The notes under the pieces were generated by a model that worked only from the letters and a program-made list of their open reading frames with translations, was not told the origin of the DNA and did no database searches. A program made the translations under genes and the position numbers. Positions 26,279-56,114 of a DNA stretch of 64,000 nt are shown here, piece after piece. The stretch lies in IMG/VR virus record IMGVR_UViG_3300028654_000009. One strand, 5' to 3'. How positions within the stretch are numbered: position 1 is the first letter of the stretch; each line of letters begins with the position of its first letter. Origin of the DNA: a virus.

Positions 26279-26861
26279 TGGGGAGCCTCGCACCCTTACG
26301 GCTGTTTTCTTCCACAGAAAGCGGCCTCAGGTTTGTATAGTGATTGACTCTCAAAAATCCTTCCCTATCATTCTCTAGGTCTACGGAAGACAGAGGTATG
26401 ATGTGGTCGATGCTCCAGACTGTTCCGTAGTTCTCCCAGGTCCACCCGGATTTGAATTGGGATTCAAGGTGGACCCTTGCTTGTTCTCCCGTGCACCCCA
26501 TATCTCTAACCGACGATCCCGCCCTGCTCCCCCTTTTGATAGCTTTCACAATTCTAGATCGGAGGTTGCATAGTATCCTAAATCCGGGGTCTATTTTTTT
26601 TCGAGCGATACGATATTGGTTGTTACTGTCAATCTCTTTTTTACGATTTCGCTCGTAGTGTTTCTTCCTGTTCGCTACAACCTGTTCCGGATTCTCTTCT
26701 TTCCACCGTTTCACACTAAGATATACTGTTCCCGAATTTTTGATCCGATATTGTTTGGCATAAAGGGCCGCACAGAGTTTGCAAGGATTTCCTTTTTTGC
26801 TAAATTCAATGATAGGCTTCTCGACCTTACATTTCGAACAAATCTTCTGTTGCGGCACCAC
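26271..26861 (-). CDS. HNH homing endonuclease
   Basis: CSKC/CKLC fingers; WSIDHIIP...NHYTNLRPL...N..KG; AT-rich relative to flanks. Confidence 0.8.
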   Translation of the reverse strand: MVPQQKICSKCKVEKPIIEFSKKGNPCKLCAALYAKQYRIKNSGTVYLSVKRWKEENPEQVVANRKKHYERNRKKEIDSNNQYRIARKKIDPGFRILCNLRSRIVKAIKRGSRAGSSVRDMGCTGEQARVHLESQFKSGWTWENYGTVWSIDHIIPLSSVDLENDREGFLRVNHYTNLRPLSVEENSRKGARLPNG

Positions 26862-38730: not shown

Positions 38731-38970
38731 ATGAAGAAGCCCATGAAGAAGCCGCGCAAAATCACGACCTTTGAGGCAGAACTGATCGAAAAGGTGGAAC
38801 AAGCCGAAGAGCGCCTCGTGGGCGCCTCCAAAAGGTTTTCTGACGCTGTCGCGTTTGGTGGGGACGTTGACCGTCTCCGGGCACGGCTCGACGTCGCCCT
38901 GGCCGAATTCGAGAAGCTGTCCAGTTGCCTCGACGGTATCTTCCCCCTCGAACCGGGGGAGGTCCGCTAA
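38731..38970 (+). CDS. hypothetical coiled-coil protein
   Basis: AAGGAG RBS; 79 aa. Confidence 0.65.
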   Translation: MKKPMKKPRKITTFEAELIEKVEQAEERLVGASKRFSDAVAFGGDVDRLRARLDVALAEFEKLSSCLDGIFPLEPGEVR

Positions 38971-40289
38971 ACCACCCAGAGCTGGTTGATTGCACTGTCG
39001 GCGGCCGTGAACCCCATAGCCGCCTTCAGTGCGTCCAGGCGCTTTACGCACGCGCGGGGGTCAATCCCGAACCTCGACAGCGACTTATACAGCGCCTCCG
39101 TATCGAGCCCCTTGACCCACGTGGACAGCTCGACCTCAACCTGGTGGTTCACCCGGGGCATCGACTTAAGCTTCGCGTCAGGCGTGAAGTCCTTGAATTC
39201 AGCCGGGGCAAGAGCCCTGAGGTAGTACGGCGTAAACGAGCTTTTGTCGTGCGCCGGGTCGAAATTCTCGCCGGCAAAAGCCGAACCGTGGTCAATCAGC
39301 TTGACGTCGGCGCCCCGAAACATCGTGTTGCCGGCGTTGCTGTCAGCGTTCCCGAGGATGTAATCGACCGCCGCCCACTTATGAAGCGTGCCGTCATGGC
39401 GGTAAATCTGGAGGGCCTTCCTGGCAGCGTTCGGGTCCTGGGTTTTTAGCTTGTTGCCATCGACATAGTCGCCCGACAGCATTTTCTGGACCGCGTATTC
39501 GCGCCCGTCGATCATCAGCAGGTAGCACTCGGGGTAGTAGGCGCCAAGTCCCCAGGAGGCCACCACGTCGTAAAAAGCCGCTTCCCGGCGAGACTGGGTC
39601 GCCGAGGTGTCGCTCTCGCCGGCAGCCGGATTCTGGCGCCCCGACCCAGGCTTGAGCAGGTAGCGCCCGTGGTTTTCTTTGTCGTAAGCCACCAGGGTGC
39701 CCTTCGAGTGCTTCCCGCCGAGCTTGATGGGGGTTATCTCGTCCTCGGACGATGCCTGCGCTACGAGCTTGGCGAACTTGACGCCGCCCTCCGTCATTGC
39801 GGCCACGTCCTTGAATTTGACGGGCTCGGGGTCTTCCGACTTCTTCAGCCCAGAGAGCCGGAGGTAGTCTGCAAGGCCCTGGCGGGTTTCATCGCTGGGC
39901 TCCAGGCCGCAGGCCATGAGCGCAGCGTCCACCGGGTCGTCGTCGCAGTGGACCCTGGCGGCCCGGACCTCATCGGGTGAGGGGGTAACCCCCGAAAGGA
40001 ACGAAGCGGCCCGCAGGCAGTCAGCCAGGTTGGTTTCCTGGCCATGTAGCGCGTCCTCTAGGTTGCGCGGTGGAGTCACCTCGATGTCGCCAGAGGGCTC
40101 GTTCTCGACCCAAGCGGAATAAGCCTGGGCCTGGTCGAGGCCAGGCACCAGGACACTCACAGGCGCGTGCTGGCCGTACTTCCTTGTCAGCCAATGGTAA
40201 GCATGCAGGAGCTGTTCACGGACCTCGTCCTCGTCACCCTCGTAAGCGTGGGTGCAGTCCTGATAGTGCTGCTGGACGATGACTCGCAT
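38967..40289 (-). CDS. PI3/4-kinase/HipA-like kinase-domain protein
   Basis: YLLKP, REAAFY, DYILGNADSNAGN, LIDHGSAF; LKKSE precedes the kinase domain; TAATG-coupled start. Confidence 0.8.
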   Translation of the reverse strand: MRVIVQQHYQDCTHAYEGDEDEVREQLLHAYHWLTRKYGQHAPVSVLVPGLDQAQAYSAWVENEPSGDIEVTPPRNLEDALHGQETNLADCLRAASFLSGVTPSPDEVRAARVHCDDDPVDAALMACGLEPSDETRQGLADYLRLSGLKKSEDPEPVKFKDVAAMTEGGVKFAKLVAQASSEDEITPIKLGGKHSKGTLVAYDKENHGRYLLKPGSGRQNPAAGESDTSATQSRREAAFYDVVASWGLGAYYPECYLLMIDGREYAVQKMLSGDYVDGNKLKTQDPNAARKALQIYRHDGTLHKWAAVDYILGNADSNAGNTMFRGADVKLIDHGSAFAGENFDPAHDKSSFTPYYLRALAPAEFKDFTPDAKLKSMPRVNHQVEVELSTWVKGLDTEALYKSLSRFGIDPRACVKRLDALKAAMGFTAADSAINQLWVV

Positions 40290-40489
40290 TACTCGACCTC
40301 GACCGCCAGGTCCTGTGCGGTATGGATGCGTCGCAGCACGTCTTGGATGGAGGTGGGGTTGTGGCCGGCATTGCGCGGGTGTGTCATCGCCCAAGGAAAC
40401 TCCAAAAGAAGCTGGGCGACGATCTGCTCGGGCTCCCCCCGGAAGGTTTCGACTTCCTGAGACCAAATATTTGTAATCTTGACCGTCAT
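40289..40489 (-). CDS. small protein resembling the N-terminus of the downstream kinase protein
   Basis: TAATG coupling at both ends. Confidence 0.65.
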   Translation of the reverse strand: MTVKITNIWSQEVETFRGEPEQIVAQLLLEFPWAMTHPRNAGHNPTSIQDVLRRIHTAQDLAVEVE

Positions 40490-43400
40490 TACTCTAACGC
40501 TCCCAGACTTTCGTACTCGGGCTGCTCGCCCTGCTCGCCCAGCGGGTCATACCATTTTTTATCTTTTGGTTTTCGGTACTGGTCAATATCTTGGAATCGC
40601 TTTTCTGCGTCCGCCATGACTTGCTTTTTGTTGAACCGATTTGTCTCAAACCCGGGGATGACCTCCTGGGCCCCCTCATTATAGTGCTCCGGAATCATAT
40701 TAGCATGCTCACGGAACTTGTCAAGCATTGCTCCCTTGTTTTTATCGAACCAATCCCAGGTCCCCTTCCATGCTTCCGGATTTTCTCCAGGCAATCCGCC
40801 CATAACCAAGGCGGCATTGTGAGTCAACAACCTAGAGTGATCCATAACGGGCCTATGTCCGCCATCGAACAGTCCCCCGTGGTCAATAGCCAACGGCAGA
40901 CCGTTAGGCTGGATCATCAGATTGTTGCTGTGGCGATCTGAGTTGCCCGTTAGATAGTCCATAATGGCAATCCGGCGCATGGCTTCACGTGCCTCCGGCC
41001 GATCGGCTACCCGGCCGGGCTCATAACCCGACCCCACATCACTGAAAGCTTGATGTAGCGACTTTACCCCAGGCTCCATATGTACGACCAAAGCGGGATT
41101 ATGGAGCCTCTCTTGAATATTGCCCTTCCCTCCCGGAATATTGAGCTGGGTGGCATGAACCTTTTGGTGAAGGTGCCCGATCCCGCCGGCATGGTACATG
41201 GCCTGATTGGTTAGCTCATTCCAGGCGGACAGGGGGGTTTGCTGGTTGCTGGCCGGCTTGACCATGTAGCGCTTGCCTCCGTGTTGATAAACGGCCTTGG
41301 GTTCGATATCGCCCTTACCGTCAGGCCCTCTCCCTTCCCACACCATGGTGGGCTCGTGCGTGTTGTTACTGTCGTTCAGGTTCTTCTCAAACGTGTTGAC
41401 GTCATTCTGGTGGGCAGCCGGATGGGCCTTCATCAGGCTGTTGTGAATCATCTTGGCTCCCAAGGTGGCATCGAAGCCCTGATGACCAAACACGCCCATC
41501 AGCTGGTCCTTCCCGCCCGCAAGGGCTTTGGACATCATTCCGTCGTCCCCAAGCAAAGGCTCCAGAGCGGCCTTCCATTTGGGGTCCCGTCCACGCCGAT
41601 GCTCTTCCACTCGCTTGTTGAGCCAGTTGATCCGTTTTTGGAAGCCAGCACGAAGGTTGTACTTCGCGCGCGGGTCGGTCACGTTCTCCAGGCGCTTCTC
41701 GAACGCTTCTTGGATAGGCAGCTTGTTTTCGTCGTACCAGGGCAGTACGTGGCGCGCGTCCCAAGAGTTCAAGCCCGGAATCTGATAGTCCCTGTCTTGG
41801 GGGAACGAACCTGGCCTGTTGTGGCCTGCGGCATAAGAAAATGCGCTGCCGTGATCAATCGCCAAAAGGGTCTTATCGGGCCTTACAAGGAGGTTTTCAC
41901 TGTGTCTGTCTTGATTGTCGATCAGGAAATCCATCAGCTGAATTTTGCGGATGTCCGCCTGGTTCGTAGGCAGGTGGTCCCTTTTGAATGAGGTGTTCCC
42001 AATATCCTTAGCCGGCTCCGCTCGGATTACCTGCGCTGGTACCATCCAATCGCCATACCCATGAGGGGCCGTGAAGGTTTCCTGGTGAAGCCTGCCGATA
42101 CCCGCAGCGTGGTACATAGCCTGGTTGGTGTTTTCCGCCCAGCCCGGCATGAACCCGTGTTTGCTGTAGGGCTTGACAATGAACTTCTGAGCCTTTGCGT
42201 AGCCCTTGACCGGCAGCTTATAGATCATCTTGGGATCGCCGCCCCTTGAAAGCTTATCTATTGTCTTGTCGGCATGGTCATAGATGCCCGAAGACCTCTC
42301 CGGCTTGACATGCGCAGCCATCCCTTGCCGATACGCCTCGACCGAATAATGGTGATGGGGCATAGGTTCTTCTGCTGCTGGATTGGAGAGATGGGGAGCC
42401 TTGACCTCTTCTGCGAAGTCGTTGGCGTTATCAATCACGGCCTTCGCCATACGCAGTTTAGGATACTTCGAATGCCCCCTGACTTTCTCGATGTGAGCCG
42501 CTGCCACCTGAATCGGAAGCGAAGGATCGTCCTGGGTGGCCTCTATCATGTGGTGGAGGTGCTCATCTGTCAGGCGAGGGTCCGCCATCAAGTCTTCATG
42601 ACGGTGAAACACAGGGTTTCCCTCGTGGTCGCGAGTGGAGTGTGCCAACACCCTCAATGCCAGGTTAGAAAGCGGGTGATAGAACGCGGTTTTGTAAACG
42701 TTGTGGTCGGGGTCGAGGATCGCGTTGGCTACGTCAGTTGGATCGGTCGAGTCCATCTTGAGAGCCAGCGAGCGTTCAATGGGGTCCGGGTGCTCAAGCA
42801 GGTGTGCAGCTTCAGAGGGCTCGTGTTTCTTGACATAGTCCTTGAGGTCTTTCTTCCCCTTCCAGCTGAACGCGGGTGTCTTGACCCGGTCGTTGATTCT
42901 TCCGTCTAGGGTGGCTTCGTCTTCTGCAAAAGCTTTTTCGTGTTCTTCGGGCGTAGCTAGTTGAGACTTATGCGGTCCCACAATAGTCTCCCAATGTGGG
43001 CTCTGATAGCCAGGCCCAGCAGGTTTGGTGGAATGTGAAAAATCGTTCTCTTTGGCCCATTGTGCGTTGTCTTCGGCGCGTGGGTGGACGGCGCCCCACA
43101 TCGGCAACATTGCGTGGATATCATTCTGGTGAATCCAGGCTGAAGTGATAGGCCCCTTGTACTCTCGCTTGAAATTATGGAGGATGCTGTACAGCTCTCC
43201 CGGAGGGGCGCCCACAATAGGCGTCCAGGAGGTTTTTCTGTCATGCGACACGTGCGCAGGGCCGACGGCGGATTGAGCTTCGGCAGGAGACATCGCCCGG
43301 TGCATAAGGAATGACCTGGTGCCGTCCGGGTGAACCTTGACTTGGGTTTTCCCAGAAAGCTTGTGGAGGCCCCTGACGCGCGCGGGGCCCTCCATTCTGG

Positions 43401-44523
43401 GGATATTCTCCCTGGTTGGGTCTTCCCTGAAACGCCTTTGATAATCCGGGTCAGAAGCGACTTGCCACCTTGCTACGGCCTGCTCGCCTTGGGGAGAAAG
43501 GTCTTGAAAGGGATCGTAGCTGGGGAGGGCTTTGTTTAGGCCAGCGCCGCTATGGGCGATCGCGTAGGGGCTGTCTCTCGGCAACCTCTCCAAATGGGCT
43601 CCCCCATTAGGGACCACGGCCGACACGGACCCTTCGTCTTCCGCTACATTCCGATAATAATAACCGCGCTTGGCGGCCCCTCTTTTTATGGCGCCCGCCA
43701 TATAACCGTTGGCCCTAAAGTCATCGTGGGCCGACATGGGAGTGTTCGACATAGGGCCCACGATCCTGACAGGGAAGATATCTGGCTTGTGGTTTGGCGA
43801 TATAGATGTCCCGTCTCCAAAGGTGGGCATCGCGGTAGCGTAATGATCTTCTGCCATAGGCCCGCTATTGTATCCGGTCCTCTGGACGCCCCTAGCTTGC
43901 AAGGTCTTGTGGCCGGCGAGCAAGGTCTTCCCATATTCTCTTGTGCCGTCCCAGCTGCCCTCTGCCGGAACACCGATTCTTGCATGCAAAGCCTGCTCTG
44001 CAGCCTTCCGGGTCCCGATATGCAGCCCCACTTTGCCGCCAACTAGCTCACCGCTCGGACTCCCATGCCACCACACCTTTTCCCTGTGGCCGTCGTTAGT
44101 GGCTTTGGCCAGGCCTTCGCCCTCTTCAACGCTGAACAACTGGCGCAGGAGGTTAGCCTCACCAGGAGGCCCTTCGAGGTTTTCCCACACGTCCCTGGGA
44201 ATGCCTTTGAGCACCGGAATCCACTTCCAGGCGCCATCCTTGACTTCCTCGTCAGGGTCATGGGTCGAATGGGCGTCACCTGAGCAGAGAGCCGAGAACA
44301 GGTGGATCATTGCGCCGGACGGATTAACTTCAGATTTGATATGCGTCAGTGACTTAGGGCGCAGGCCGGTCTCCTCGTACAGCTCCCTGGCGGCAGCTAC
44401 CGTTTTGTCTTCGCCCTCGTTGAGACCCCCACCTGGCATCGTCCAGGTGCCACGGTCGGAGCGCTTCCCGAGCAAAATCTCGCCTTTCCCGTTGGTGACG
44501 AGTATGAGAGAAACTTGCTTCAT
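40489..44523 (-). CDS. polyvalent protein: Nudix, two ADP-ribosyltransferase-like domains, helical region, two PI3/4-kinase/HipA-like domains
   Basis: Nudix box GGGLNEGE...ARELYEETGL; WWHGS..GLHIG; HRAMS..TSWT..ETIV; two DRH..N...IDHG motifs. Confidence 0.8.
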   Translation of the reverse strand: MKQVSLILVTNGKGEILLGKRSDRGTWTMPGGGLNEGEDKTVAAARELYEETGLRPKSLTHIKSEVNPSGAMIHLFSALCSGDAHSTHDPDEEVKDGAWKWIPVLKGIPRDVWENLEGPPGEANLLRQLFSVEEGEGLAKATNDGHREKVWWHGSPSGELVGGKVGLHIGTRKAAEQALHARIGVPAEGSWDGTREYGKTLLAGHKTLQARGVQRTGYNSGPMAEDHYATAMPTFGDGTSISPNHKPDIFPVRIVGPMSNTPMSAHDDFRANGYMAGAIKRGAAKRGYYYRNVAEDEGSVSAVVPNGGAHLERLPRDSPYAIAHSGAGLNKALPSYDPFQDLSPQGEQAVARWQVASDPDYQRRFREDPTRENIPRMEGPARVRGLHKLSGKTQVKVHPDGTRSFLMHRAMSPAEAQSAVGPAHVSHDRKTSWTPIVGAPPGELYSILHNFKREYKGPITSAWIHQNDIHAMLPMWGAVHPRAEDNAQWAKENDFSHSTKPAGPGYQSPHWETIVGPHKSQLATPEEHEKAFAEDEATLDGRINDRVKTPAFSWKGKKDLKDYVKKHEPSEAAHLLEHPDPIERSLALKMDSTDPTDVANAILDPDHNVYKTAFYHPLSNLALRVLAHSTRDHEGNPVFHRHEDLMADPRLTDEHLHHMIEATQDDPSLPIQVAAAHIEKVRGHSKYPKLRMAKAVIDNANDFAEEVKAPHLSNPAAEEPMPHHHYSVEAYRQGMAAHVKPERSSGIYDHADKTIDKLSRGGDPKMIYKLPVKGYAKAQKFIVKPYSKHGFMPGWAENTNQAMYHAAGIGRLHQETFTAPHGYGDWMVPAQVIRAEPAKDIGNTSFKRDHLPTNQADIRKIQLMDFLIDNQDRHSENLLVRPDKTLLAIDHGSAFSYAAGHNRPGSFPQDRDYQIPGLNSWDARHVLPWYDENKLPIQEAFEKRLENVTDPRAKYNLRAGFQKRINWLNKRVEEHRRGRDPKWKAALEPLLGDDGMMSKALAGGKDQLMGVFGHQGFDATLGAKMIHNSLMKAHPAAHQNDVNTFEKNLNDSNNTHEPTMVWEGRGPDGKGDIEPKAVYQHGGKRYMVKPASNQQTPLSAWNELTNQAMYHAGGIGHLHQKVHATQLNIPGGKGNIQERLHNPALVVHMEPGVKSLHQAFSDVGSGYEPGRVADRPEAREAMRRIAIMDYLTGNSDRHSNNLMIQPNGLPLAIDHGGLFDGGHRPVMDHSRLLTHNAALVMGGLPGENPEAWKGTWDWFDKNKGAMLDKFREHANMIPEHYNEGAQEVIPGFETNRFNKKQVMADAEKRFQDIDQYRKPKDKKWYDPLGEQGEQPEYESLGALE

Positions 44524-45368
44524 TACAAACTTCCGGTGAACATCCCCAAGCCCATCTGGCGCTGGAGTTTCTTGACCAAGAACTTCCGCTTATCCTGAAG
44601 GATCTTCAACCGATCGTTGAACAAATCAGGACCGGGAGTAGACTGACTCTGGGAAAGCCCATCGATGCTCAAGCTCGCCGAGGTGGACCTCGAATACGTG
44701 GTCGCGAGCATGGCTAGGACTTCCATAGCAGTGATGACGCCGATGAGCTGGTTCACCACGCGAGGAACCATCCCGTCCTTGAAGCCGGTCGTATAGATAA
44801 CCTCGAAGAACGAAGCAATCCAGGGGCGATGTCCGAAGATGGCCATAAACTGCGCTCCGTAGGGCCCTGTTCCAATCTGAGCATAGTTGTTCGTCTGCAG
44901 AGCGATCGTCAAAGGGATGAGATTGAGCTGTCCCTGGTGGAGGTAGCCCACGTCGATCCAGTCCAAGGGAATTGAGTAGATCGTCTGCTCGTTCGATGCA
45001 GTGATGGTGACGGCCTGCAGAGACTGAATAGGCCGATGTCTCAATTGCATGAACCCGAGAGACTCATACTCGGGCTTGTCGAAAGCGAGCTTCTCTTTGA
45101 ACTGCTTAGGGAAGATATCGAACCCGCCGTCGATCTCGGCCAGAGCTACAGCCTCAATGATATACTCCTTGAGTTCTTCCGGGCCTATGTACATGGGCTT
45201 ACCAGTACGCGGATCTTTGACTGCTGAGATAAGGGGAATGCCCCACAGGTGAAGGCGGATAACCTTCTCAGGGGTGATCAGCGGCTCGTGCTGGAGCCAT
45301 ACGCCCTCAATTTTGTTGATGTCGAAAATTTCACCGACACCGTCTTTGCTAGTCGTGTAATCGGCCAT
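44523..45368 (-). CDS. head-tail adaptor/neck protein
   Basis: V.YTTGF, S.SLSIDGLSQS.S motif of SPO1/Twort-type adaptors; follows the capsid gene. Confidence 0.7.
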   Translation of the reverse strand: MADYTTSKDGVGEIFDINKIEGVWLQHEPLITPEKVIRLHLWGIPLISAVKDPRTGKPMYIGPEELKEYIIEAVALAEIDGGFDIFPKQFKEKLAFDKPEYESLGFMQLRHRPIQSLQAVTITASNEQTIYSIPLDWIDVGYLHQGQLNLIPLTIALQTNNYAQIGTGPYGAQFMAIFGHRPWIASFFEVIYTTGFKDGMVPRVVNQLIGVITAMEVLAMLATTYSRSTSASLSIDGLSQSQSTPGPDLFNDRLKILQDKRKFLVKKLQRQMGLGMFTGSL

Positions 45369-45441
45369 TAAAGTCGCGCTCTTTTCTTGAGATTATCGGC
45401 AGCCCACAAGGGCTGCATGTTGGTGTAGTGGGAGGCCTTCA

Positions 45442-45852
45442 TTAGCAGTCGCTCCCGTCAGTAGCAGCCAAGATAGCAGCCTGAAGCACCGCGATTTTCT
45501 GATTGGCAGACTCGGTAAGAGTAATCCTGATCGACACCGTCCCTCGGATGGGGTCAGTGGCCAAGAGAGAAACCTTCCAAATCGAGGGGTCTTGAGCAAA
45601 CGGCTGAACGGCTGCTCGGTTGAACTTTTTATTGCTATCAATGTTCTGAAACTGGATCAGCATAGTCGCCCCTACGACCGGCATGTACCGGAGACCGGCA
45701 GGCTCCCAGCCCTTCGTCAAAGGGAGCTGATCCTTGTCAATCAGCTGGATGTAAACGTCAAAGGGGGTGCCCTCGAATACCTCCACCTGGGTGATGAATT
45801 CGAAGTGATTGATATCAGAAACGTTGCCCAGAAGGCGCGCGCCAAAGTTCAT
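45442..45852 (-). CDS. virion structural protein
   Basis: Beta-rich 136 aa; late motif 5 nt upstream. Confidence 0.55.
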   Translation of the reverse strand: MNFGARLLGNVSDINHFEFITQVEVFEGTPFDVYIQLIDKDQLPLTKGWEPAGLRYMPVVGATMLIQFQNIDSNKKFNRAAVQPFAQDPSIWKVSLLATDPIRGTVSIRITLTESANQKIAVLQAAILAATDGSDC

Positions 45853-45880
45853 GACCTTAGATTAGGCCGAATCTTGATTG

Positions 45881-46300
45881 ATGCGTTATGTCTTACCTTT
45901 GCTGGCGATCCTGCTGACGGCCTGCCCTCCCAAGGCACTTCCACAAGACCCCCAAATGGTCCAGGCGGTCCAGATTGCGTGGAGCTATTACAAGCTCCCA
46001 GGGAAGCCCCCTACGTACGTCCTGATGCAGGGCGCGGCCCTTACGTGCAGGAATAGCCCGGGCACAGAAATGGTTGGCTGGGGATGTAAGGGCGTGGTTC
46101 ACCCAGGCTGCACTTGCGTCGCCGGCACGGAAGACGGGGCGAGCTTTGCTATTGCTCGGGTGGATAATCAGCCGTGGCACACGACTGCAATTTGTCACGA
46201 AGCCCAGCACGCTGCTGTGGGCAACTACAACCATACGCAACCAGCCTGGGACAACCTGTTGCTCCCCTGCCAGGCCGCTCAGACTGCCGCCGGGCTCTAG
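45881..46300 (+). CDS. putative lipoprotein with HExxH motif
   Basis: LLTAC lipobox; ICHEAQH; AATCTT motif 5 nt upstream. Confidence 0.65.
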   Translation: MRYVLPLLAILLTACPPKALPQDPQMVQAVQIAWSYYKLPGKPPTYVLMQGAALTCRNSPGTEMVGWGCKGVVHPGCTCVAGTEDGASFAIARVDNQPWHTTAICHEAQHAAVGNYNHTQPAWDNLLLPCQAAQTAAGL

Positions 46301-46842
46301 TCCTCTTCAGAACTCTTTCGGCTCTCCCAGAATTCTTCGAGTTCTCTGTCCCTTTCGGCCAACGTAGTTCCCAGTAGGTCATCGAGGGCGCCGTCATCAT
46401 AGGTGCCCGTTGCAAGTGCCTTCCCGAAGAATCCACTAACCTCATTTACGAACGCTGTTGGAGACAGCAGCTCCCTTGGGGTGGGCATGGTCCCGGGGCT
46501 GACGTGGTGGAGGCGTTCAAACTTCTCTCCTAGATCAAACCACCACTCAATCTCCTTGCCTAGGTCGATAGCAAGGATGATTTCGAGTTCCATCCCCTCA
46601 CTTATGGCCCCTCCGACGATATAAACAGCAACACGGTCAGAGGTTGCCAAATACGCCTGGGCGGCGATGATTCCTAGCTGTCTGTCCACTTCTTTGGTGT
46701 CGTCTAGAAATTGCGTGTAATACCCGTGTGGAGCAAAGGGCGCTCTCCCCATGCTCAGCTGGTGAGTTGCATACCGATGGCTCTTAAGGATGTTCCCCGA
46801 AACTTCGCCCCGCAGCCTGCTGCAAACGAATACCGTTTCCAT
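46297..46842 (-). CDS. DUF4406/nucleoside deoxyribosyltransferase-like protein
   Basis: VFVCS...G....N, PFAPH..YTQFLDD, ISEGM..EI..A. Confidence 0.7.
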   Translation of the reverse strand: METVFVCSRLRGEVSGNILKSHRYATHQLSMGRAPFAPHGYYTQFLDDTKEVDRQLGIIAAQAYLATSDRVAVYIVGGAISEGMELEIILAIDLGKEIEWWFDLGEKFERLHHVSPGTMPTPRELLSPTAFVNEVSGFFGKALATGTYDDGALDDLLGTTLAERDRELEEFWESRKSSEED

Positions 46843-47141
46843 CAGTTGAGGTTTGGGTTTGGAGGGATTTTGATCCCCTCTTTTTCGAGGGTCTTGATTG
46901 CAAGGTCGTTGGCGCGGCCGTACTGAACTCGGAAGGTGTCAACCAACACTTCACAAGGTAGACCAGAAAATCCAGCTGCGCGGGCGGCCGCAAGGACCAG
47001 AGAAAACAGCGCCAGGAGCGGGTTAGGAGAAATGTCGCCGGCCTTTTCAATCAACACGGAGGAGTTCACGCCGGCTGTCTTTTCCCAGCCTTCCGGTAGC
47101 AGATCCTCCAACGAGTGTTTCTCAGAATCGTCTTTAGGCAT
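46842..47141 (-). CDS. hypothetical protein
   Basis: Late motif 5 nt upstream; TGATG coupling to the next gene. Confidence 0.6.
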   Translation of the reverse strand: MPKDDSEKHSLEDLLPEGWEKTAGVNSSVLIEKAGDISPNPLLALFSLVLAAARAAGFSGLPCEVLVDTFRVQYGRANDLAIKTLEKEGIKIPPNPNLN

Positions 47142-47180
47142 CTTCTAAGATTAGCATACAAATCAATGAATTACAAACGC

Positions 47181-47214
47181 AAAAGGCCCCTGCAGTTTCC
47201 AGCCTGCAGGGGCC
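47181..47214 (-). terminator. intrinsic terminator
   Basis: GGCCCCTGCAG/CTGCAGGGGCC hairpin + TTTT. Confidence 0.8.
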
Positions 47215-47244
47215 ACTAAAACCTACATGTATGACCTATAGGTT

Positions 47245-47892
47245 TTAGTATTGCTTCTCAAAATCAGAGAACACGTAACGAGGTGCGTTGGGGTAATTGT
47301 TGTTCTTCAGGAAGCCAATTTCCACAAACGAAGTGGGATTGTCGTTGCGACAGTCTCCGTAAGTTGGCTCCGGGAAACTGGGAAACAAATAGAAAGCATC
47401 GACGGACAGCGTGTAATATGTGTTAGGGTTGATTACATACACCGACCCGTCCGTGAAGTTGCAGGAACCAGAGCTAGCATACCATACAATCTGGAGCCCG
47501 GCAATCATAGGCAGACTGTAGTTGAACGCTCGCGGATCATAATTGCCCCACGCTCGCTCCATGTAAAAGCCACAGCTAGGGGTGTCAAGATTGTCCGAAG
47601 TGCGCTCATACAGGTACTTGTTGACACTCGAATCCCACCTAAGTTTGCTGTGTGTGGGACCGGTCAAAACGGGGGGAGAGGAAGTCCCTTCCCCGGTCCA
47701 GCTCGACTGGGTTCCGTCAGACTTCCAGTGATCCACGATACGGCAATAGCTGCTTTCCTTCTCCTGGGCAACTCCGACCTTGTCGGCAGCCAGCTGCGCG
47801 CTGAAATCCTTTGTGGTGGGAGCCTTGACGGGCTCGCCTCCACATGCTACCAATACCAAACCAACGATCATTGAGAGTGCTACTTTCTTCAT
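47245..47892 (-). CDS. lipoprotein
   Basis: MKKVALSMIVGLVLVAC lipobox; own promoter TTGACA-16-TAAACT (47962..47935) and own terminator. Confidence 0.75.
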   Translation of the reverse strand: MKKVALSMIVGLVLVACGGEPVKAPTTKDFSAQLAADKVGVAQEKESSYCRIVDHWKSDGTQSSWTGEGTSSPPVLTGPTHSKLRWDSSVNKYLYERTSDNLDTPSCGFYMERAWGNYDPRAFNYSLPMIAGLQIVWYASSGSCNFTDGSVYVINPNTYYTLSVDAFYLFPSFPEPTYGDCRNDNPTSFVEIGFLKNNNYPNAPRYVFSDFEKQY

Positions 47893-47991
47893 TTCATTCC
47901 TTTCTGTTACGGGTTTTGGGTTCCTAAACGGGATAGTTTAGCAGAGTTTTATTGAGTGTCAAGGGGGTTATTACAGGGTACCCTGTAATGC

Positions 47992-48022
47992 AAAAGGCCC
48001 AGGAGGTTATCCTGGGCCTTTT
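47992..48022. terminator. terminator after the major capsid gene (bidirectional form)
   Basis: AAAAGGCCCAGGA-loop-TCCTGGGCCTTTT. Confidence 0.85.
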
Positions 48023-48051
48023 ATGGTCTAACTAACTAGTTACTTAGCTTA

Positions 48052-49443
48052 TTACAGCTGTCCGCGCAAGTTGTCGATCAGCACGTTCTTGCGGGGCTCC
48101 ACAACCGCCAAAGTCAAGAACCGCAGATGCGCCTCGGGGATGCTGAGGTCCGAGACCGCCAGCTTCACTCGGCTGTAAGGGGCAAGCTCCTTCAGCTCCA
48201 TGGTGTCGCCCTGGATGAGATAGCCCGTCACGAAGCCCGGGAGCTTATTCCCGAGGTCGAGGAAGGTGGTGTTACCCGACACCGCCGAGATAACCCGACC
48301 AACGAACTTGGCCGAGGAGGCCGCGCCGCCAGCGTTCGTGCGGTACACATTGTACCCGCGAACCGTACCAGAACCCGGAGGGGTGATGGTCAGGGTGATC
48401 TTGTCGTTCAGGTTGACCGAGGCCGACGCGATAGAGGCCGAAGCCGGGGACTCGCCGTTCTCGTTGAACGAGGTGACGTAGAAGGTGTAGACGCCAGCCG
48501 CGAGAGCCCCACCGGCGCTGTTGGCAATGCCGAGGGTAGGAGCGGTAGGAGAGTTGGCGCGGGTGCGAGCCGGCTTGCTCTTACCACGAAGGAACTGGCT
48601 GGCCTCGATGTTGACGGTACCACCAGAAACCCACTGCTTGCGGAGGTCGCCACCGGTCGAGTCCTGAGGGGACCCCGCGAGAATTACTCGCTCCTTGCCG
48701 ATAACCAGCTTGTTGTAAGCCGAGAGGACAATCGGGTCAACCAGAAGGCGGTTGGCAGTGCCGAAGTTGAGAGCGCTACGAACCGCCGCGTCCTCAACCT
48801 TGCCCTGGTCCAGGGTGCCGCCGCCCGAGAGAACCACAGAGTCGTCCGAGCCGAACTCTGAGAACATAAGGTCTCGGCTGTTGACCTGCATGTCGCTCTG
48901 ACGAACCTGGAGACCGAGCCCGTGAATGTTCGGGAGGGCCGGGACGGCGAAGGGATTGCCGTCGAACACGCCCGCGTTCGAGAAGTCGTCGATACCACGG
49001 AAGCTGTCGAACTCGATGTCGCCAGCGATCTTCTTGGCAGCGTCAGCAGCGGCGCGCTCGTCGCTCTTCTTGCCGTCAACAGTCGCCACCATCGTCGAAG
49101 CGATGGTCACCCGACGAACGTGGGAGTAGAATGCCATTGGCACCGTAACCCGCACGAAGTCCGAGGTCTCTTCCTGTCCGACCTGGCCTTCGAGCTGGGC
49201 AGACCCGCCGAAGATACCGTAGCTGAGCTGACGGTCGAACTGGTAGAGGGTGGCCTTGCAGGACGAGGTCCCCACGATCTTCTGGAGCTTGATGTGGCTC
49301 TCATCGAAAGTGACGTTGTTCATGACCGGGCTGCAGTCCTCGATTTGAAGGGCAGCACCCTGGGTCAGCGTACTGGGGGCTGCGTCATAGTTGCCAGCCT
49401 CCAACGCCTTCTTAAGTTCAGTAACGGCATCCATTGCGTTCAT
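48052..49443 (-). CDS. major capsid protein (SPO1/Twort-like)
   Basis: LKKALEAG...GAALQIE N-arm; 463 aa; strong RBS and terminator. Confidence 0.9.
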   Translation of the reverse strand: MNAMDAVTELKKALEAGNYDAAPSTLTQGAALQIEDCSPVMNNVTFDESHIKLQKIVGTSSCKATLYQFDRQLSYGIFGGSAQLEGQVGQEETSDFVRVTVPMAFYSHVRRVTIASTMVATVDGKKSDERAAADAAKKIAGDIEFDSFRGIDDFSNAGVFDGNPFAVPALPNIHGLGLQVRQSDMQVNSRDLMFSEFGSDDSVVLSGGGTLDQGKVEDAAVRSALNFGTANRLLVDPIVLSAYNKLVIGKERVILAGSPQDSTGGDLRKQWVSGGTVNIEASQFLRGKSKPARTRANSPTAPTLGIANSAGGALAAGVYTFYVTSFNENGESPASASIASASVNLNDKITLTITPPGSGTVRGYNVYRTNAGGAASSAKFVGRVISAVSGNTTFLDLGNKLPGFVTGYLIQGDTMELKELAPYSRVKLAVSDLSIPEAHLRFLTLAVVEPRKNVLIDNLRGQL

Positions 49444-49485
49444 TTGTGTGTTCTCTCCTGATGGTTTTTGTTGTTGGGGCAGTTG

Positions 49486-50442
49486 TTAGGCGAGGAACTT
49501 GGCGATATCGTCAATTCCTGCGGACCCAACAACAAACTTGTTGATGAGGTCTCGGTCAGATTTGGCAAGCTTCGAAGAGGAGGTTGCCTTGTTGAGCTTC
49601 TCAATCACTTGCGACTTCGTAAGCGACCGGGGATCAACAGGGGCCTTCTCGGCCGGCTTATCGGTGGTACCAGGCTTGCTGATGTAGGAAATCCCAGCGA
49701 CAGACTTCCGCATGACCTGGCGCTTGGTCACCATATCGGTGATTGCCTTGATGGTCTCGGCCATGGCCACTTCCTGCTTGGCAAGCTGGTCGTCCTTCTC
49801 TTTGATCGACTTGCGCAGCTTGCTGATTTCAGACATCTGAGACTTGGCCATTCCGCCGTTCCCGTCATTGGGAGTCCCAGTGCTGATTTCGCCCTTGCCG
49901 ATTCCCGGCGGAGGACCGCCAGCTCCCGGCGGAGGACCGCCGGCCGAAGCCTCGGGGCCCGGGGGAGGGCCGGCCGATGCGTCAGGGCCCGGAGGGCCTG
50001 CAGAGGCCTCAGGACCGCCCGCCTCGGGGCCGCCACCCTGCGATTCCATCGCCATGAGGGCGGCGTGGGCTGCCATCAGGTGCATCTTCAGCTCTTCAGG
50101 CGGGAGCTTCATGTACTCGGCCTGGAGTGCTTCCGGAGTGGCGCCGGCATCTGTCGCCGGGTCCTGGCCGCCGTCTGGACCGCCGTCCATCGGGGGCGCT
50201 GAGCCCTCGGCAGAAGCGTCGGCAGAAGCGTCGGGAGCGCCAGAATCCTCGGGACCGGCGCTCGACTGCTCGCCCGGAGGTCCGTCAGTCGCGCTTCCGT
50301 CCGGAGTGGTCTCGGCAGTGGTCTCTTCGCCAGGGTCGGCCTTGGAAAGGGTCACTTCCTCCGTATCGGACTTGAGCATGACGGCGACATCGTTAGTCAC
50401 CTGCTCAAGCAACTTGTTGATTTGAGATTTCGAGAGCTTCAT
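49486..50442 (-). CDS. scaffold protein
   Basis: Acidic, Pro/Gly-rich, directly upstream of the capsid gene; about 10 hydrophobic-x-K-S/A motifs. Confidence 0.75.
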   Translation of the reverse strand: MKLSKSQINKLLEQVTNDVAVMLKSDTEEVTLSKADPGEETTAETTPDGSATDGPPGEQSSAGPEDSGAPDASADASAEGSAPPMDGGPDGGQDPATDAGATPEALQAEYMKLPPEELKMHLMAAHAALMAMESQGGGPEAGGPEASAGPPGPDASAGPPPGPEASAGGPPPGAGGPPPGIGKGEISTGTPNDGNGGMAKSQMSEISKLRKSIKEKDDQLAKQEVAMAETIKAITDMVTKRQVMRKSVAGISYISKPGTTDKPAEKAPVDPRSLTKSQVIEKLNKATSSSKLAKSDRDLINKFVVGSAGIDDIAKFLA

Positions 50443-50475
50443 TAGGTTGTCCTTCCTTGAGGGTTGGGACCCTAA

Positions 50476-50946
50476 TTAGGTGGTCGAGAGGGTGTTCCAG
50501 ATCGGAGCCCAGGTCGACTTCAGGTTACCTGCGATCATTGCGGTCGTCGAAGGCACGGTACCGTTGGCAGTCTGGTAGGTATTGATATAAGCGCCAGTGC
50601 GGCCCGCGTCGGCATAGAGCAGAGCGAGGTCGCCGAGGACATCGATATCTGCGCCAGCGCCCGAGGAGATATTCGACTCGGTGCAGACGTTGATGATGGT
50701 CGGGCAGTAGACCTGCGCGGCGTTGCCGAAGATGTCGGTGCTCACCGGCGCACTGGCCGGCGTGGTCTTCACAACAATGACCTTCTTACCGGCGGCCGGC
50801 GAAGAGTCAGAGCTGAGAACGGTGTAAGGATTCAAGTCGGTGTCGACGAAATCGTTCGAGACCGGATAGTTGGTCGCCAGACGCAGCTTGAGGTTTTCAA
50901 CCAGCTGCCGGTGAAGCGTCGCAACCTTGTAGTTCGTAGTGGCCAT
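50476..50946 (-). CDS. probable capsid-associated protein
   Basis: First gene of the scaffold-capsid unit; AAGGAG RBS. Confidence 0.6.
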   Translation of the reverse strand: MATTNYKVATLHRQLVENLKLRLATNYPVSNDFVDTDLNPYTVLSSDSSPAAGKKVIVVKTTPASAPVSTDIFGNAAQVYCPTIINVCTESNISSGAGADIDVLGDLALLYADAGRTGAYINTYQTANGTVPSTTAMIAGNLKSTWAPIWNTLSTT

Positions 50947-51398: not shown

Positions 51399-52261
51399 GC
51401 GGCCGGCCTCCAGCGCTCGATCCGAAACATCTGGGCACCGTAATGGAGCTTTACGGCTCCGGGCTGGGAACTACCAAAATTGGAAAGCAACTAGGGGTAA
51501 GCTCCAGGGCGGTTCGCTACTTGATGAAACAGAGCGGCATCCCCCTCAGGAGGGATGATTTCGCCAAACTAGTTATCAATGACGGCTTCTTCGACGAAAT
51601 TGACACGCCAGAGAAGGCATATTGGCTGGGCATATTGATTACCGATGGGAATGTGTCTGGGACCCGAATAACGCTGAACCTGAAAGATCGGGAGCATCTG
51701 GTAAAGTTCGCTGAAGCTCTAGGAGGCGGCCAGACACTATCTATCAAAGCAAAACACAAACAAATGGAAGGTCGGGATGTGGTTTGCTTCAACCTCCAGT
51801 TTAGAAGCAAACACATGGCCGGAGCGCTGTCAAAATACGGGGTCGTCCCTCGCAAAAGTGCAACATCATACCCATGGAACGGTCCGGCTGAATTGATGCC
51901 ACACTTTTGGAGAGGGTGTGTGGACGGCGATGGGTGGATTACTGAGATAAAGCCAGGTAGGTTTGCTATTGGTCTGTGTGGAACAAAAGCGATGACACAA
52001 GCGTTCTCAGACTTTTCTTATTCTGTCACTGGGGTTGCTCACAAAATCAAAGCACAGGGCAACATTTTTGTTTGCAGCGTCGGCAGCATAGAGGTGGTCC
52101 GAAAGTTGGCAATTTGCCTGTATGGAAACCTAGATAAGGCTAGTAGCCTTGACAGAAAGCTGGATAAAGCTATTTTGGCGATGGGGGCTTTGGTCCAGCA
52201 ACCCCCGCCTGGGCGCCCGAAGAAGGCAAAGCCCCAGCTGGTGGGGCCCCAGAATCAATAG
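51395..52261 (+). CDS. LAGLIDADG homing endonuclease with N-terminal HTH
   Basis: AYWLGILITDGN and FWRGCVDGDG motifs. Confidence 0.9.
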   Translation: MSGRPPALDPKHLGTVMELYGSGLGTTKIGKQLGVSSRAVRYLMKQSGIPLRRDDFAKLVINDGFFDEIDTPEKAYWLGILITDGNVSGTRITLNLKDREHLVKFAEALGGGQTLSIKAKHKQMEGRDVVCFNLQFRSKHMAGALSKYGVVPRKSATSYPWNGPAELMPHFWRGCVDGDGWITEIKPGRFAIGLCGTKAMTQAFSDFSYSVTGVAHKIKAQGNIFVCSVGSIEVVRKLAICLYGNLDKASSLDRKLDKAILAMGALVQQPPPGRPKKAKPQLVGPQNQ

Positions 52262-55910: not shown

Positions 55911-56114
55911 TTAATTCGTCTCGAAACGGACAGCCGAAACGACGCGCTGGATCTGGACGTCTTCGACATCACAAGGAGCCAGGTCGTTCTTCCCGATGAC
56001 ATCCGCCCATTCGTCAAGCTCTTCTGGAGGCGGCGGTCTGAAGTCGTCGGCCACTTGGATCTCGTAAACGGAAGTGGCCATCTCCTGGACTACTACACGG
56101 TAGGTCTTACTCAA
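55911..56114 (-). CDS. hypothetical protein
   Basis: TTG start after GGGGAGA, overlapping the MuF stop. Confidence 0.5.
   Translation of the reverse strand: MSKTYRVVVQEMATSVYEIQVADDFRPPPPEELDEWADVIGKNDLAPCDVEDVQIQRVVSAVRFETN

Follow-up and report, generated by a model that had tools for sequence, protein, structure and literature searches.

A Nudix, ART-fold and tandem kinase-like polyvalent protein encoded beside the head-tail adaptor gene of a phage related to Myxococcus phage Mx1

INTRODUCTION

Polyvalent proteins, as defined by Iyer, Burroughs, Anand, de Souza and Aravind (2017, PMC5512222), are single polypeptides of phage origin that combine many effector-type domains and are encoded with head-morphogenesis genes. 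In the parts of that paper drawn on here, ART-type domains are the commonest protein-modifying components of such proteins, modules are shuffled between relatives, the kinases are of the Ser/Thr/Tyr type without a C-lobe and come mostly from Verrucomicrobia and Bacteroidetes, and Nudix is mentioned once, beside InPase. Head-packaged ARTs and Nudix enzymes are described for myophages in sections of PMC5512222 and PMC9503650. The life history of phage T4 Alt is established: the protein is synthesized late, is packaged in the head, undergoes trimming by the head protease and, once injected, modifies host proteins; with phage T7 there is also a precedent for a kinase of phage origin that targets host proteins at an early stage of infection (both as outlined in PMC5512222).

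Here, we analyzed a 1344-aa protein (P0001) of an uncultured relative of Myxococcus phage Mx1. The window was a 64,000-nucleotide stretch of IMG/VR record IMGVR_UViG_3300028654_000009, in which the protein is encoded by a single, intact open frame (40489..44523); this and all other features located below lie on the (-) strand. P0001 shares with the polyvalent proteins of PMC5512222, as far as that account is used here, all of the defining properties named above, and it can be regarded as a variation on the known theme of polyvalent, virion-delivered effectors. The protein comprises, in order, a Nudix domain, an ART-fold module, a lineage-restricted domain (domain 3), a helical-looking linker and two PI3/PI4-kinase-like (HipA-like) domains. 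Domain 3 excepted, the identities of these domains are shown below (for the ART module, at the fold level), as are the location of the gene and the gene order conserved around it.

RESULTS AND DISCUSSION

Gene position and the cargo slot

The P0001 gene directly follows the head-tail adaptor gene, and the same protein was found on eight contigs, the longest of 168 kb. The upstream adaptor/neck-like gene (44523..45368) encodes 281 aa that matched PDB 8q01_b, 'Adaptor protein / neck protein' (E = 2e-5); the PHROGs label for its family, 'tail fiber', is at odds with this match. As a first-pass annotation made from the letters had observed, the TAA stop of the adaptor gene and the ATG of P0001 overlap as TAATG. 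A Shine-Dalgarno-like GGAAG lies 6 nt ahead of this ATG. The genes of the head block are arranged in the order terminase, portal, MuF-like, protease, scaffold-like, capsid, adaptor and cargo. The 1240-aa protein at the protease position is a putative prohead protease on the basis of 38% identity to the Mx1 'putative prohead protease'; a PDB search with it matched its GGDEF part only. A DUF7768/deoxyribosyltransferase-like gene also lies inside the head block of this phage, and that of Mx1 includes thymidylate synthase and dNMP kinase.

On the downstream side, the cargo slot is closed by a conserved kinase-like gene (38967..40466) whose true start is probably internal to the frame; its product aligned with orthologues in two uncultured relatives (L001 and L002) and was weakly similar to the kinases of P0001. 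The head-block order given above recurs in L001, L002 and Mx1, but the cargo differs: between the adaptor gene and the kinase-like gene, the enzyme sets of Mx1 and the two relatives comprise ART-PolyVal, GNAT, PBECR5, Nudix and kinases. Compared with Mx1 (OR576727.2), identity was 58% for the capsid protein, 37% for the 281-aa adaptor-like protein and 42% over 344 aa for the kinase-like protein, annotated as 'kinase' in Mx1.

The Mx1 slot encodes WNM70333.1 ('NUDIX hydrolase', 1479 aa), with GNAT and canonical ART-PolyVal domains ahead of the Nudix, followed by WNM70334.1 ('kinase', 619 aa), so that ART, Nudix and kinase are again found together, with an ART of another family. Both phages thus combine ART, Nudix and PI3/PI4-kinase-like domains in the slot. 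However, only the Nudix of the large Mx1 protein was detectably homologous to P0001 (36% identity), and the Mx1 protein has no counterpart of the WWHGS module, of domain 3 or of the tandem kinases. Judged from these sequences, the slot behaves as a cassette site where related phages swap enzyme modules.

The Nudix domain and a conserved module with an ART fold

Residues 1–135 (44119..44523) form a Nudix hydrolase domain, matched by Pfam NUDIX (PF00293) with E = 7.8e-17 and a score of 62 bits, where the cut-off is 21. The Nudix box, called intact in the first-pass annotation and read directly from the translation at residues 32–54 (44362-44430), is indeed complete: G32-x5-E38-x7-R46-E47-L-x-E50-E51-x-G53-L54. 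The nearest solved relatives of the domain were RppH, NUDT15 and Ap4A hydrolase (E ~1e-7), and the RppH-like matches fell far under the family cut-offs.

The next module (residues 149–316; 43576..44079), which carries the string WWHGS...GLHIGT..AA, is a discrete, highly conserved unit whose invariant residues include H153, H168, E295 and D296. Its AF2 model was confident (pLDDT 92.9). When this model was used for a structure search, approximately 40 of the 50 rows listed had ART-superfamily titles, with Z scores of at most 5.3; the top neighbours were RES and ParT (Z = 5.3), and further ART-fold matches included MbcT, diphtheria toxin (DT), exotoxin A (ExoA), tankyrase and other PARPs, Arr, DarT and pertussis toxin. 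In Foldseek searches, RES and cholix toxin headed the PDB rows (best E-value 0.28), and the top BFVD rows were named PolyVal ADP-ribosyltransferase (probability up to 0.98, best E-value 5e-3). Each of these matches is weak when taken singly, in Z score as in both E-values. With regard to sequence, Pfam models, ART-PolyVal included, matched none of 46 members of the family, a PDB profile search with the module found nothing and hhalign against ART-PolyVal gave 5.6% probability; no sequence profile ties the module to any ART. The proposal of an H-class ART made from the letters is therefore borne out at the fold level by the confident model, its mostly ART neighbours and ART-PolyVal as the best viral match, but not by any profile link.

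ART-PolyVal (PF18760; Tox-ART-HYD2 clade, H-Y-D active site), the best viral structural match, is found in host proteins of the same type and follows a parallel N-terminal motif logic, namely aromatic-H-G-[ST], G-x-[YH]-x-[TG] and then a helix starting with Ala. In the ART-PolyVal alignment built here, YHGT...G-H-Y-L-T...A is paralleled by the N-terminal motif WHG[ST]...G-L-H-x-G-T...A of the present family. However, the second triad position is His in place of the strand-2 Tyr of ART-PolyVal, and the acidic residues E295 and D296 are modeled in the loop that leads into the last core strand, not at the ART-PolyVal Asp position; the acidic triad residue is a tentative assignment from secondary structure only. 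The model thus supports, at the level of the fold, an ART module with an H-H-E(D) motif pattern, representing a widespread family absent from Pfam. In this respect P0001 differs from the polyvalent proteins of PMC5512222, in the sections considered, since its module is unmatched by the Pfam ART-PolyVal model.

We also examined where the family occurs. A query of residues 136–560 was matched by representatives in 471 clusters, nearly all of the listed ones via the 149–316 module. Members were mostly found inside other polyvalent proteins, and among the matches listed, more than 150 multi-domain proteins carried the module. Its partners were ART-PolyVal, InPase, PBECR5, Acb1, M15 peptidases, GNATs, MuF (P0044) and a portal domain (P0016), which is consistent with the module shuffling between relatives described in the parts of PMC5512222 cited above. 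The module and ART-PolyVal often stand side by side, as in P0014 (residues 749–924 and 959–1126). Conservation within the family was 50–70% identity, which is atypical for arms-race effectors.

These observations bear on the activity of the module, because an ART-type fold might serve something other than protein ADP-ribosylation: an NAD+ glycohydrolase (RES/MbcT-like), a nucleic-acid- or phosphate-directed enzyme of the His-His clade (Tpt1/KptA), or a non-catalytic NAD/ADPr-binding or scaffolding domain. We hold this to be possible, though rather unlikely. The best neighbours include the NAD-degrading/phosphorylase-type toxins RES and MbcT in addition to the ADP-ribosylating toxin ParT, and at its second motif position the module has His, not Tyr, a feature of the H-H clade that Aravind et al. 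reportedly described in 2015. Among the lower rows was 9ld3 (Z = 3.7), a complex that contains ADP-ribose and a phosphorylated adenosine; its title names no protein, and we take it to be a Tpt1/KptA-type enzyme. Moreover, the very high conservation would fit a small, invariant substrate, and the frequent presence of a canonical ART-PolyVal in the same protein argues against redundancy. However, the nearest viral structural matches are the ART-PolyVal domains, which are predicted protein modifiers, the invariant acidic pair E295-D296, which precedes the last core strand, is placed much like the catalytic Glu of transferases, and the Z scores, being within 1–2 units of each other, are too close for ranking clades.

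Domain 3

Domain 3 (residues 333–548; 42880..43527) is restricted to a few Mx1-like phages, with only three homologues found (P0002, P0003 and P0006; ~56% identity). The strings HRAMS (408–412), TSWT (431–434) and WETIV (510–514) had suggested an ART of the R-S-E class in the first-pass annotation, and all three were present and invariant across an alignment of the P0001 domain and its homologues. This invariance carries little weight, since the columns of the four-sequence alignment averaged 77% identity, and with only three homologues at the above identity it is uninformative.

If residues 327–560 were a second ART beside the H-class module, its catalytic triad would be R410 (HRAMS), S432 (TSWT) and E511 (HWETIV), as in T4 Alt. 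In addition to the invariant strings, ARTs do occur in the slots of Mx1-like phages, and in the low-confidence AF2 model LMHRAM lies in a strand that leads into a helix, an arrangement that would suit the first strand and helix of an ART. However, Pfam, PHROG and NCBIfam searches yielded no match within residues 327–560, a profile search of the domain against PDB gave nothing relevant, and hhalign against the 149–316 module and against ART-PolyVal found nothing. Because the pLDDT was 41, the fold of domain 3 was not readable from the model, which was unusable for residues 327–560. Furthermore, isolated short motifs of the type R, S-x or E-x-I would be expected by chance in a domain of 230 residues. 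We therefore consider two ARTs very doubtful; as a candidate R-S-E ART, domain 3 is not supported by these results and is not refuted by them either.

The linker and the tandem kinase-like domains

The region between domain 3 and the kinases (residues 560–691; 42451..42846) contains HPDP...ER..AL-type repeats and is conserved with P0002, P0003 and P0004. Pfam gave no match to this linker, and its sequence looks like a helical repeat.

Two PI3/PI4-kinase-like domains follow, at residues ~760–985 (41569..42246; PF00454, TIGR03843 and phrog_3162) and ~1070–1344 (40492..41316; PF00454, best stretch 1182–1219). The Pfam PI3_PI4_kinase model (PF00454) matched P0001 in two stretches (E = 3.6e-15; 57 bits, above the cut-off of 27), and TIGR03843 matched domain 1 with E = 6e-11. 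That the two are tandem paralogues, as had been noted from the letters, was confirmed by 30% identity between them (E = 8e-24). The catalytic motifs are intact in both: K784, D872-R-H-S-E-N877 and D890-H-G in domain 1, and K1089, D1196-R-H-S-N-N1201 and D1214-H-G in domain 2, whose catalytic loop aligns with that of Vps34 (PDB 2x6f). The D-R-H-x-x-N loop and the following D-x-G are shared with PI3/PI4-kinase-like/HipA-like phosphotransferases (PF00454, the TIGR03843 SCO1664 family and Vps34). However, the P0001 domains span only ~250–300 residues and have neither a helical nor a C2 domain of the kind seen in eukaryotic lipid kinases, and as a tandem PI3_PI4_kinase pair they differ from the polyvalent kinases described in the relevant sections of PMC5512222. 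None of the searches run found homology to phage T7 gp0.7, which may be a functional analogue; the putative substrate could be protein, lipid or small molecule.

Lysine motifs and the proposed delivery of P0001

The first-pass annotation had also pointed to 'K sites' between the segments. We scanned for the motif [LM]xK[AS] and compared the counts with those of shuffled sequences. P0001 contained five sites compared with 1.3 expected (P ~0.01), four of which lie in inter-domain linkers: L138-A-K140-A141 between the Nudix and ART-like domains (44101..44112), L329-N-K331-A332 (43528..43539), M692-A-K694-A695 (42439..42450) and M997-S-K999-A1000 (41524..41535). These are candidate protease sites 1–4, and the fifth motif is L1030-M-K-A1033 (41425-41436). 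The scaffold-like protein contained nine sites (0.56 expected), and the capsid protein has one at residues 8–13 in all four phages (this phage, Mx1, L001 and L002); the four adaptors, terminase and sheath contained none. The Mx1 cargo proteins were likewise enriched (seven compared with 1.5 expected), and the L001 and L002 cargo more weakly. This distribution fits a cut by the head protease. A lysine cleavage motif common to capsid and scaffold proteins was not encountered in the portions of PMC5512222 used for comparison.

By analogy, P0001 may share the life history of T4 Alt, and the comparison drawn in the first-pass annotation is apt as to mechanism but not as to clade: Alt carries one enzyme only and belongs to the R-S-E clade, whereas P0001 is multi-enzyme and its ART-fold module has an H-class motif. 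Pfam and PHROG searches found no similarity of any part of P0001 to Alt. The T4 head protease cuts after Glu, in contrast to the candidate motif here, which ends in Lys.

Alternatively, P0001 might not be virion cargo but a multi-enzyme protein that is expressed late and works in the cytoplasm of the producing cell, where it could reshape nucleotide or NAD pools or modify phage or host proteins during assembly; the lysine motifs would then reflect linker composition instead of cleavage. The metabolic genes in the head blocks of this phage and Mx1 favor this possibility, and because such non-structural genes occur there, position in the block is no proof of packaging. However, the motif is common to the capsid N-terminus and the scaffold-like protein and absent from the adaptors, terminase and sheath, fusions of the 149–316 module with MuF and portal domains occur in other phages, the start codon of P0001 is coupled to the adaptor stop, and published comparative work, in the sections of PMC5512222 considered, argues for packaging of such proteins. 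A role confined to the producing cell thus appears unlikely. A literature search on virion proteomics or biochemistry of this phage or Mx1 returned a general review only.

We therefore favor, with a fair degree of confidence, P0001 as a late, head-module-encoded, virion-delivered polyprotein of an Mx1-like myophage with host-directed enzymes in series. Probably the protein enters the capsid, is cleaved at lysine sites and is then delivered to the next host. The multi-enzyme polyvalent character proposed from the letters is retained for the Nudix, the kinases and, at the fold level, the first ART, but not for the second. P0001 would be co-translated with the adaptor in the late program and incorporated into the procapsid, where the prohead protease would cut after the Lys of [LM]-x-K-[AS] in the linkers to yield predicted pieces of ~15, 21, 41, 34 and 35 kDa. 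Ejected together with the DNA, the pieces would modify macromolecules of the new host through NAD+-dependent ADP-ribosylation and phosphorylation, and the Nudix piece may hydrolyze an NDP-X compound, for instance a signal derived from ADP-ribose or NAD, or else the cap or triphosphate at an RNA 5' end. Candidate site 2 aligns with the very start of P0006, a separate gene in a relative, and in L001, which has the split version, the gene boundaries fall at such a site.

Domain composition of P0001

The gene of P0001, the 1344-aa multi-enzyme protein, is a single unbroken frame of 1344 codons (window 40489-44523, minus strand), and the identical protein sequence is recorded on eight contigs, the longest of which is 168 kb. 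We searched its N-terminus for a Nudix domain, defined by the box G-x5-E-x7-R-E-U-x-E-E-x-G-U on an alpha/beta/alpha fold. Residues 1-135 matched Pfam PF00293 (E 7.8e-17; 62 bits against a cut-off of 21.1), and the box that the first-pass annotation had described as intact is indeed complete in the translation (G32...E38...R46-E47-L48-Y49-E50-E51-T52-G53-L54). On this match, the segment can be placed securely in the Nudix hydrolase superfamily. Its closest solved proteins are RppH, NUDT15 and Ap4A hydrolase; no substrate-specific subfamily was indicated among the NCBIfam equivalogs, all of which scored far under their cut-offs (the best, RppH, 36.9 bits against 139; NudE, 17.6 against 169).

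At the other end of the protein, the two tandem kinase paralogues proposed earlier were recovered at approximately residues 760-985 and 1070-1344 (30% identity, E 8e-24 between the copies). A PI3/PI4-kinase assignment was taken to require an HMM score above the gathering score, a D-R-H-x-x-N loop, a metal-binding D-x-G and an N-lobe Lys. PI3_PI4_kinase (PF00454) matched two stretches of P0001 with 57 bits against a cut-off of 27.1, and the catalytic motifs are kept in both copies (K784, D872-R-H...N877 and D890-H-G in the first; K1089, D1196-R-H...N1201 and D1214-H-G in the second); the catalytic loop aligns with that of Vps34. Weaker Pfam matches to HipA, Fam20C and ABC1 reflect the common protein-kinase-like fold, and the profile and motif evidence makes the presence of two PI3/PI4-kinase-like domains secure.

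The frame downstream of P0001 (38967-40466, minus strand) encodes a third PI3/4-kinase-like protein, orthologous to the 'kinase' gene of Myxococcus phage Mx1 (42% identity over 344 aa) and to 440-443-aa genes of L001 and L002, two contigs of uncultured relatives. Its catalytic loop reads D-S-N-A-G-N, and those of its relatives D-R-H/N-A-G/N-N. The first ~130 codons of this frame look non-coding, and the true start is therefore probably internal.

A widespread module with a candidate ART fold

The WWHGS domain of P0001 (residues 149-316, referred to here as the module) is a discrete unit that shares 50-70% identity with parts of many large proteins unrelated in other respects. When residues 136-560 were used to query 1.84 billion representatives with HMMER, 471 representative clusters were recovered (E below 1e-30 for 189), and nearly all of the best 150 of the 471 clusters matched the query through the module. 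The module has no fixed place in the proteins that bear it, which reach 4500 residues, and it also stands alone (190-280 aa). The larger proteins that bear it carry domains characteristic of polyvalent proteins, namely ART-PolyVal, InPase, PBECR5, Acb1, M15 peptidases, GNATs, MuF and portal. No Pfam model matched any of 46 module members, and ART-PolyVal (PF18760) matched 0 of the 46 sequences at E <= 1. Our own ART-PolyVal HMM never overlapped the module, and hhalign of the module against ART-PolyVal gave a probability of 5.6%, over the C-terminal strands only. In P0014, another protein with the module, ART-PolyVal spans residues 749-924 and the module 959-1126. As judged from these profile comparisons, the module is distinct from ART-PolyVal, which it often adjoins.

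Structure prediction of the module with AlphaFold, based on the 46-sequence alignment, gave a model with a mean pLDDT of 92.9 and ART-type neighbours. Foldseek with this model found nothing in the PDB at E <= 0.001, the top weak rows being RES toxin and cholix toxin, and a sequence-profile search of the PDB gave no match. In a VIA-align all-against-all structural search, approximately 40 of the 50 rows listed had ART-superfamily titles (Z 2.6-5.3). The ART titles among the structural matches included the RES, ParT, MbcT, diphtheria and cholix/exotoxin A toxins, as well as tankyrase and other PARPs, Arr, DarT, pertussis toxin, scabin and Rhs ART toxins, and the best matches among the predicted viral structures of BFVD were 'PolyVal ADP-ribosyltransferase' or 'ART-PolyVal-like' (probability up to 0.98). 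The module also matched the cyanophage A4 pre-ejectosome chain 9k3a_B (Z 4.5), in which the paper on that structure describes no ART domain. Because the structure lists agree, more than because of any single score, a split beta-sheet ART fold is the best reading of the modelled module, and the earlier description of this domain as ART-like holds at the level of the fold.

We looked for an ART triad of the form H-Y-[EDQ], R-S-E or H-H-h on strands 1, 2 and 5, placing residues from sequence and secondary structure only. The invariant H153 is the His of W-H-G-[ST], where strand 1 ends. H168, also invariant, belongs to G-L-H-x-G-T on strand 2, where ART-PolyVal has G-H-Y-L-T. E295 is invariant and D296 near-invariant, both just before VSAVV, the last core strand. 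These residues fit an H-class ART, of which they would form a putative triad. The module may found an undescribed and unusually conserved ART clade with an H-H-E pattern, comprising ~470 clusters and lacking a Pfam model, and its chemistry may be unlike that of the neighbouring protein-modifying ART-PolyVal, acting for example on NAD-derived immune signals, NAD-capped RNA or nucleic-acid ends.

The neighbourhoods of stand-alone module genes are mostly tiny contigs. On L005, a phage-like contig, a stand-alone 190-aa module (2275-2847, plus strand) lies two genes upstream of an Acb1/2H-phosphoesterase-like gene, with GIY-YIG homing endonuclease genes on both sides, and in another protein, P0044, Acb1 and the module are parts of one polypeptide. 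This repeated association with Acb1, a cyclic-nucleotide-degrading anti-defence enzyme, is suggestive of module function at most.

A lineage-restricted domain at residues 327-560

The adjoining region (domain 3, residues 327-560) had been annotated as a second, R-S-E-type ART. The HRAMS, TSWT and WETIV strings on which this was based are present, but all profile comparisons were negative: domain 3 had no relevant profile match or PDB-profile match, and hhalign against both the module and ART-PolyVal failed to connect it with either. The translation of residues 327-560 contains no S-T-S and no E-x-E of an R-S-E signature, only TSW and a single E511, and an AlphaFold model on four sequences had a pLDDT of 41, with an unreadable fold. 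We consider it unlikely that domain 3 is an ART.

In the databases searched, the only homologues of domain 3 were P0002, P0003 and P0006, all from the same kind of genomic slot, that is, the interval from an adaptor-like gene to a conserved kinase-like gene. The HMMER scan of 1.84 billion representatives gave two strong matches to the domain 3 part among the matches listed, word-indexed searches gave three hits among longer proteins and none among proteins of similar length, and degenerate-pattern scans of viral and metagenome contigs revealed no further domain 3. Within the window, neither domain 3 nor the module has a second copy. The homologues are so alike that the invariance of the strings is uninformative, and on these searches domain 3 is lineage-restricted. 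A 2H-phosphoesterase reading, suggested by two H-x-[ST]-x motifs, was dropped, the Ser of HVSH being Lys in the homologues. P0002 and P0003 (the latter on L002, 10001-14731; residues ~1085-1135) contain a zinc-ribbon-looking Cys-rich insert (C-x2-C ... C-x2-H) between domain 3 and a helical linker, which P0001 is without.

Position of P0001 in a conserved, probable cargo slot

Labelling each gene by its best match, we obtained the following order on the minus strand: terminase large subunit (60922-62979), portal (57795-59918), MuF-like minor head protein (56107-56886), a 1240-aa protein with a GGDEF domain (52170-55892), an acidic, lysine-motif-rich 318-aa protein that we read as the scaffold (49486-50442) and the major capsid protein (48052-49443). 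Several small genes then intervene before a 281-aa ORF, which is followed by P0001 and the 499-codon downstream frame; beyond these lie a 1770-aa multi-GNAT protein and the tail sheath. The 281-aa ORF (44523-45368, minus strand) matches a solved phage adaptor/neck protein (8q01_b, E 2e-5), and the adaptor label given to it earlier is therefore reasonable, notwithstanding the PHROGs name of its family, 'tail fiber'. Its TAA overlaps the ATG of P0001 in TAATG, as had been noted, and a GGAAG word lies 6 nt 5' of that ATG.

From its protein identities with Mx1 (58% for the capsid protein, 37% for the adaptor), the window phage is a distant relative of this phage. A megablast search with 40000-50500 and a tblastn search with P0001 found no close relative among 50,697 phage records, in which only the Nudix domains of Mx1 and a Vibrio phage matched. 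Between the capsid and adaptor genes lies a DUF7768/nucleoside 2-deoxyribosyltransferase-like gene (46297-46842, minus strand), and the equivalent place in Mx1 holds thymidylate synthase and a dNMP kinase; the head module of this phage group thus includes genes of nucleotide metabolism.

In three related phages, the slot has the same order: an adaptor-like gene, one or more multi-enzyme proteins and a conserved kinase-like gene of 440-619 aa. On L001 (a 169-kb contig, NCBI assembly), it comprises three genes, encoding domain 3 plus kinase, Nudix plus kinase, and kinase. On L002, it holds one 1576-aa protein (PBECR5 ... Nudix - domain 3 - Cys-rich insert - helical linker - kinase). In Mx1, a 1479-aa protein with GNAT, a canonical ART-PolyVal (649-896) and Nudix (923-1033) precedes a PI3/4-kinase-like gene, and the WWHGS module of P0001 occupies the place held there by ART-PolyVal. 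Two further proteins are shuffled in a like manner: P0005 shares with P0001 a collinear Nudix and module head, and P0004 has the architecture Nudix - module - other domains - linker - kinase - kinase. By this comparison, the slot is fixed and its content shuffled module by module; ART, Nudix and kinase are, by domain assignment, a recurring combination in it. The Mx1 record annotates the positional counterparts merely as 'NUDIX hydrolase' and 'kinase', and a literature search found no experimental work on the Mx1 slot proteins. Mx1 is culturable on Myxococcus.

Lysine motifs and predicted packaging of P0001

We compared the counts of the lysine motif [LM]xK[AS] with those expected from shuffling tests. 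P0001 contains five sites against 1.3 expected (P 0.012), at 138-141, 329-332, 692-695, 997-1000 and 1030-1033, the first four lying in inter-domain linkers, and the K sites noted earlier between its segments are thus statistically enriched. Enrichment was also found in the scaffold-like protein (9 against 0.56, P <0.0005), the 1770-aa polyvalent protein (8 against 1.7, P 0.0005) and a 683-aa protein (6 against 1.0, P 0.0005), and no site occurs in the adaptor, terminase or sheath. The capsid proteins of Mx1, L001 and L002 have a single site each, within residues 8-13 (10-13 in the window phage), their scaffold-like proteins have 4, 3 and 8 sites, respectively, and their adaptors have none. 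The Mx1 slot protein contains seven sites against 1.5 expected; enrichment in the slot proteins of L001 and L002 is weaker (3, 3 and 4 sites, P 0.03-0.06). In Mx1 and L002, the motif flanks the Nudix and ART domains, and the start of P0006, a separate gene, aligns with the second site of P0001.

This is the pattern expected of a prohead protease that cleaves after Lys in capsid, scaffold and cargo alike, and it argues that P0001 would enter the procapsid and be released as five enzyme pieces of ~15-41 kDa. Together with the gene position and the stop/start coupling, the motif enrichment leads us to infer that P0001 is packaged and delivered. It would be expressed late together with the adaptor, packaged in the capsid, cleaved at the K sites by the head protease and ejected in pieces with the DNA. 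In the host, the ART-fold piece would carry out an NAD+-dependent modification, the two kinase pieces would phosphorylate, and the Nudix piece would hydrolyse an NDP-X molecule. Enzymes delivered by the virion are the first step that a phage takes against host defence; to our knowledge, T4 Alt, P1 Dar and N4 vRNAP are among the very few that have been characterised. The rule of [LM]xK followed by A or S is a simple one for predicted cargo cuts, and could be used to annotate packaged effectors of Mx1-like phages.

Residues 60-844 of the 1240-aa protein (52170-55892, minus strand) are 38% identical to the 'putative prohead protease' of Mx1, and residues 1009-1211, the GGDEF part, match a separate Mx1 gene annotated 'nucleotide cyclase', and two Mx1 genes are therefore fused here; a PDB search with this protein found the GGDEF part and no protease. 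Over its first 35 residues, which precede and surround its lysine site, the capsid protein (48052-49443, minus strand) shares 54% identity with L004 (the Mx1 locus) 520-624, a segment within the Mx1 prohead protease gene; this stretch may represent a shared propeptide or targeting segment. The lysine-rich 683-aa protein (12006-14057, minus strand), which is encoded among the tail genes and has a weak DUF3293 match, may be a further processed or packaged protein.

Comparison with known polyvalent proteins

Polyvalent proteins are polypeptides of phages or conjugative elements with at least two unrelated effector or enzymatic domains and shared modules (Iyer et al. 2017). With four enzymatic-type domains, one unknown domain and a shared module, P0001 is a polyvalent protein in this sense. 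Published comparative work supplies a precedent, both for ARTs and Nudix enzymes packaged in the heads of myophages and for polyvalent proteins generally (PMC5512222, PMC9503650). Compared with Pfam and the accessible portions of the polyvalent-protein papers, P0001 differs in having an ART-fold family outside the ART-PolyVal model, whose second motif has His; a domain without an assignable fold that is restricted to its lineage; and a candidate lysine cleavage motif that would tie the cargo to head maturation. Its kinases are tandem and PI3/PI4-kinase-like, in contrast to the C-lobe-less Ser/Thr-type kinases in those portions.

If the ordinary reading alone holds, P0001 adds a further member, unusual in its mix of domains, to the polyvalent proteins. 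A joint reading, in which a new H-H-E ART clade is combined with a fixed slot after the adaptor gene, from which Mx1-like phages would load interchangeable ART, Nudix and PI3/4-kinase-like enzymes into the capsid, to be separated by the head protease and injected as a cocktail, is possible, and we propose it tentatively. The uncatalogued domain of ~170 aa, with its high-confidence model of a probable ART fold, is found across hundreds of polyvalent proteins and is absent from Pfam. If tandem kinases are capsid cargo, as seems likely, the chemistry of host takeover by phages would extend to phosphorylation by a family little studied in bacteria. The window encodes a second polyvalent protein (1770 aa; 20981-26293, minus strand), which has an N-terminal mCpol domain, a weak ParB-like match and several GNAT matches.
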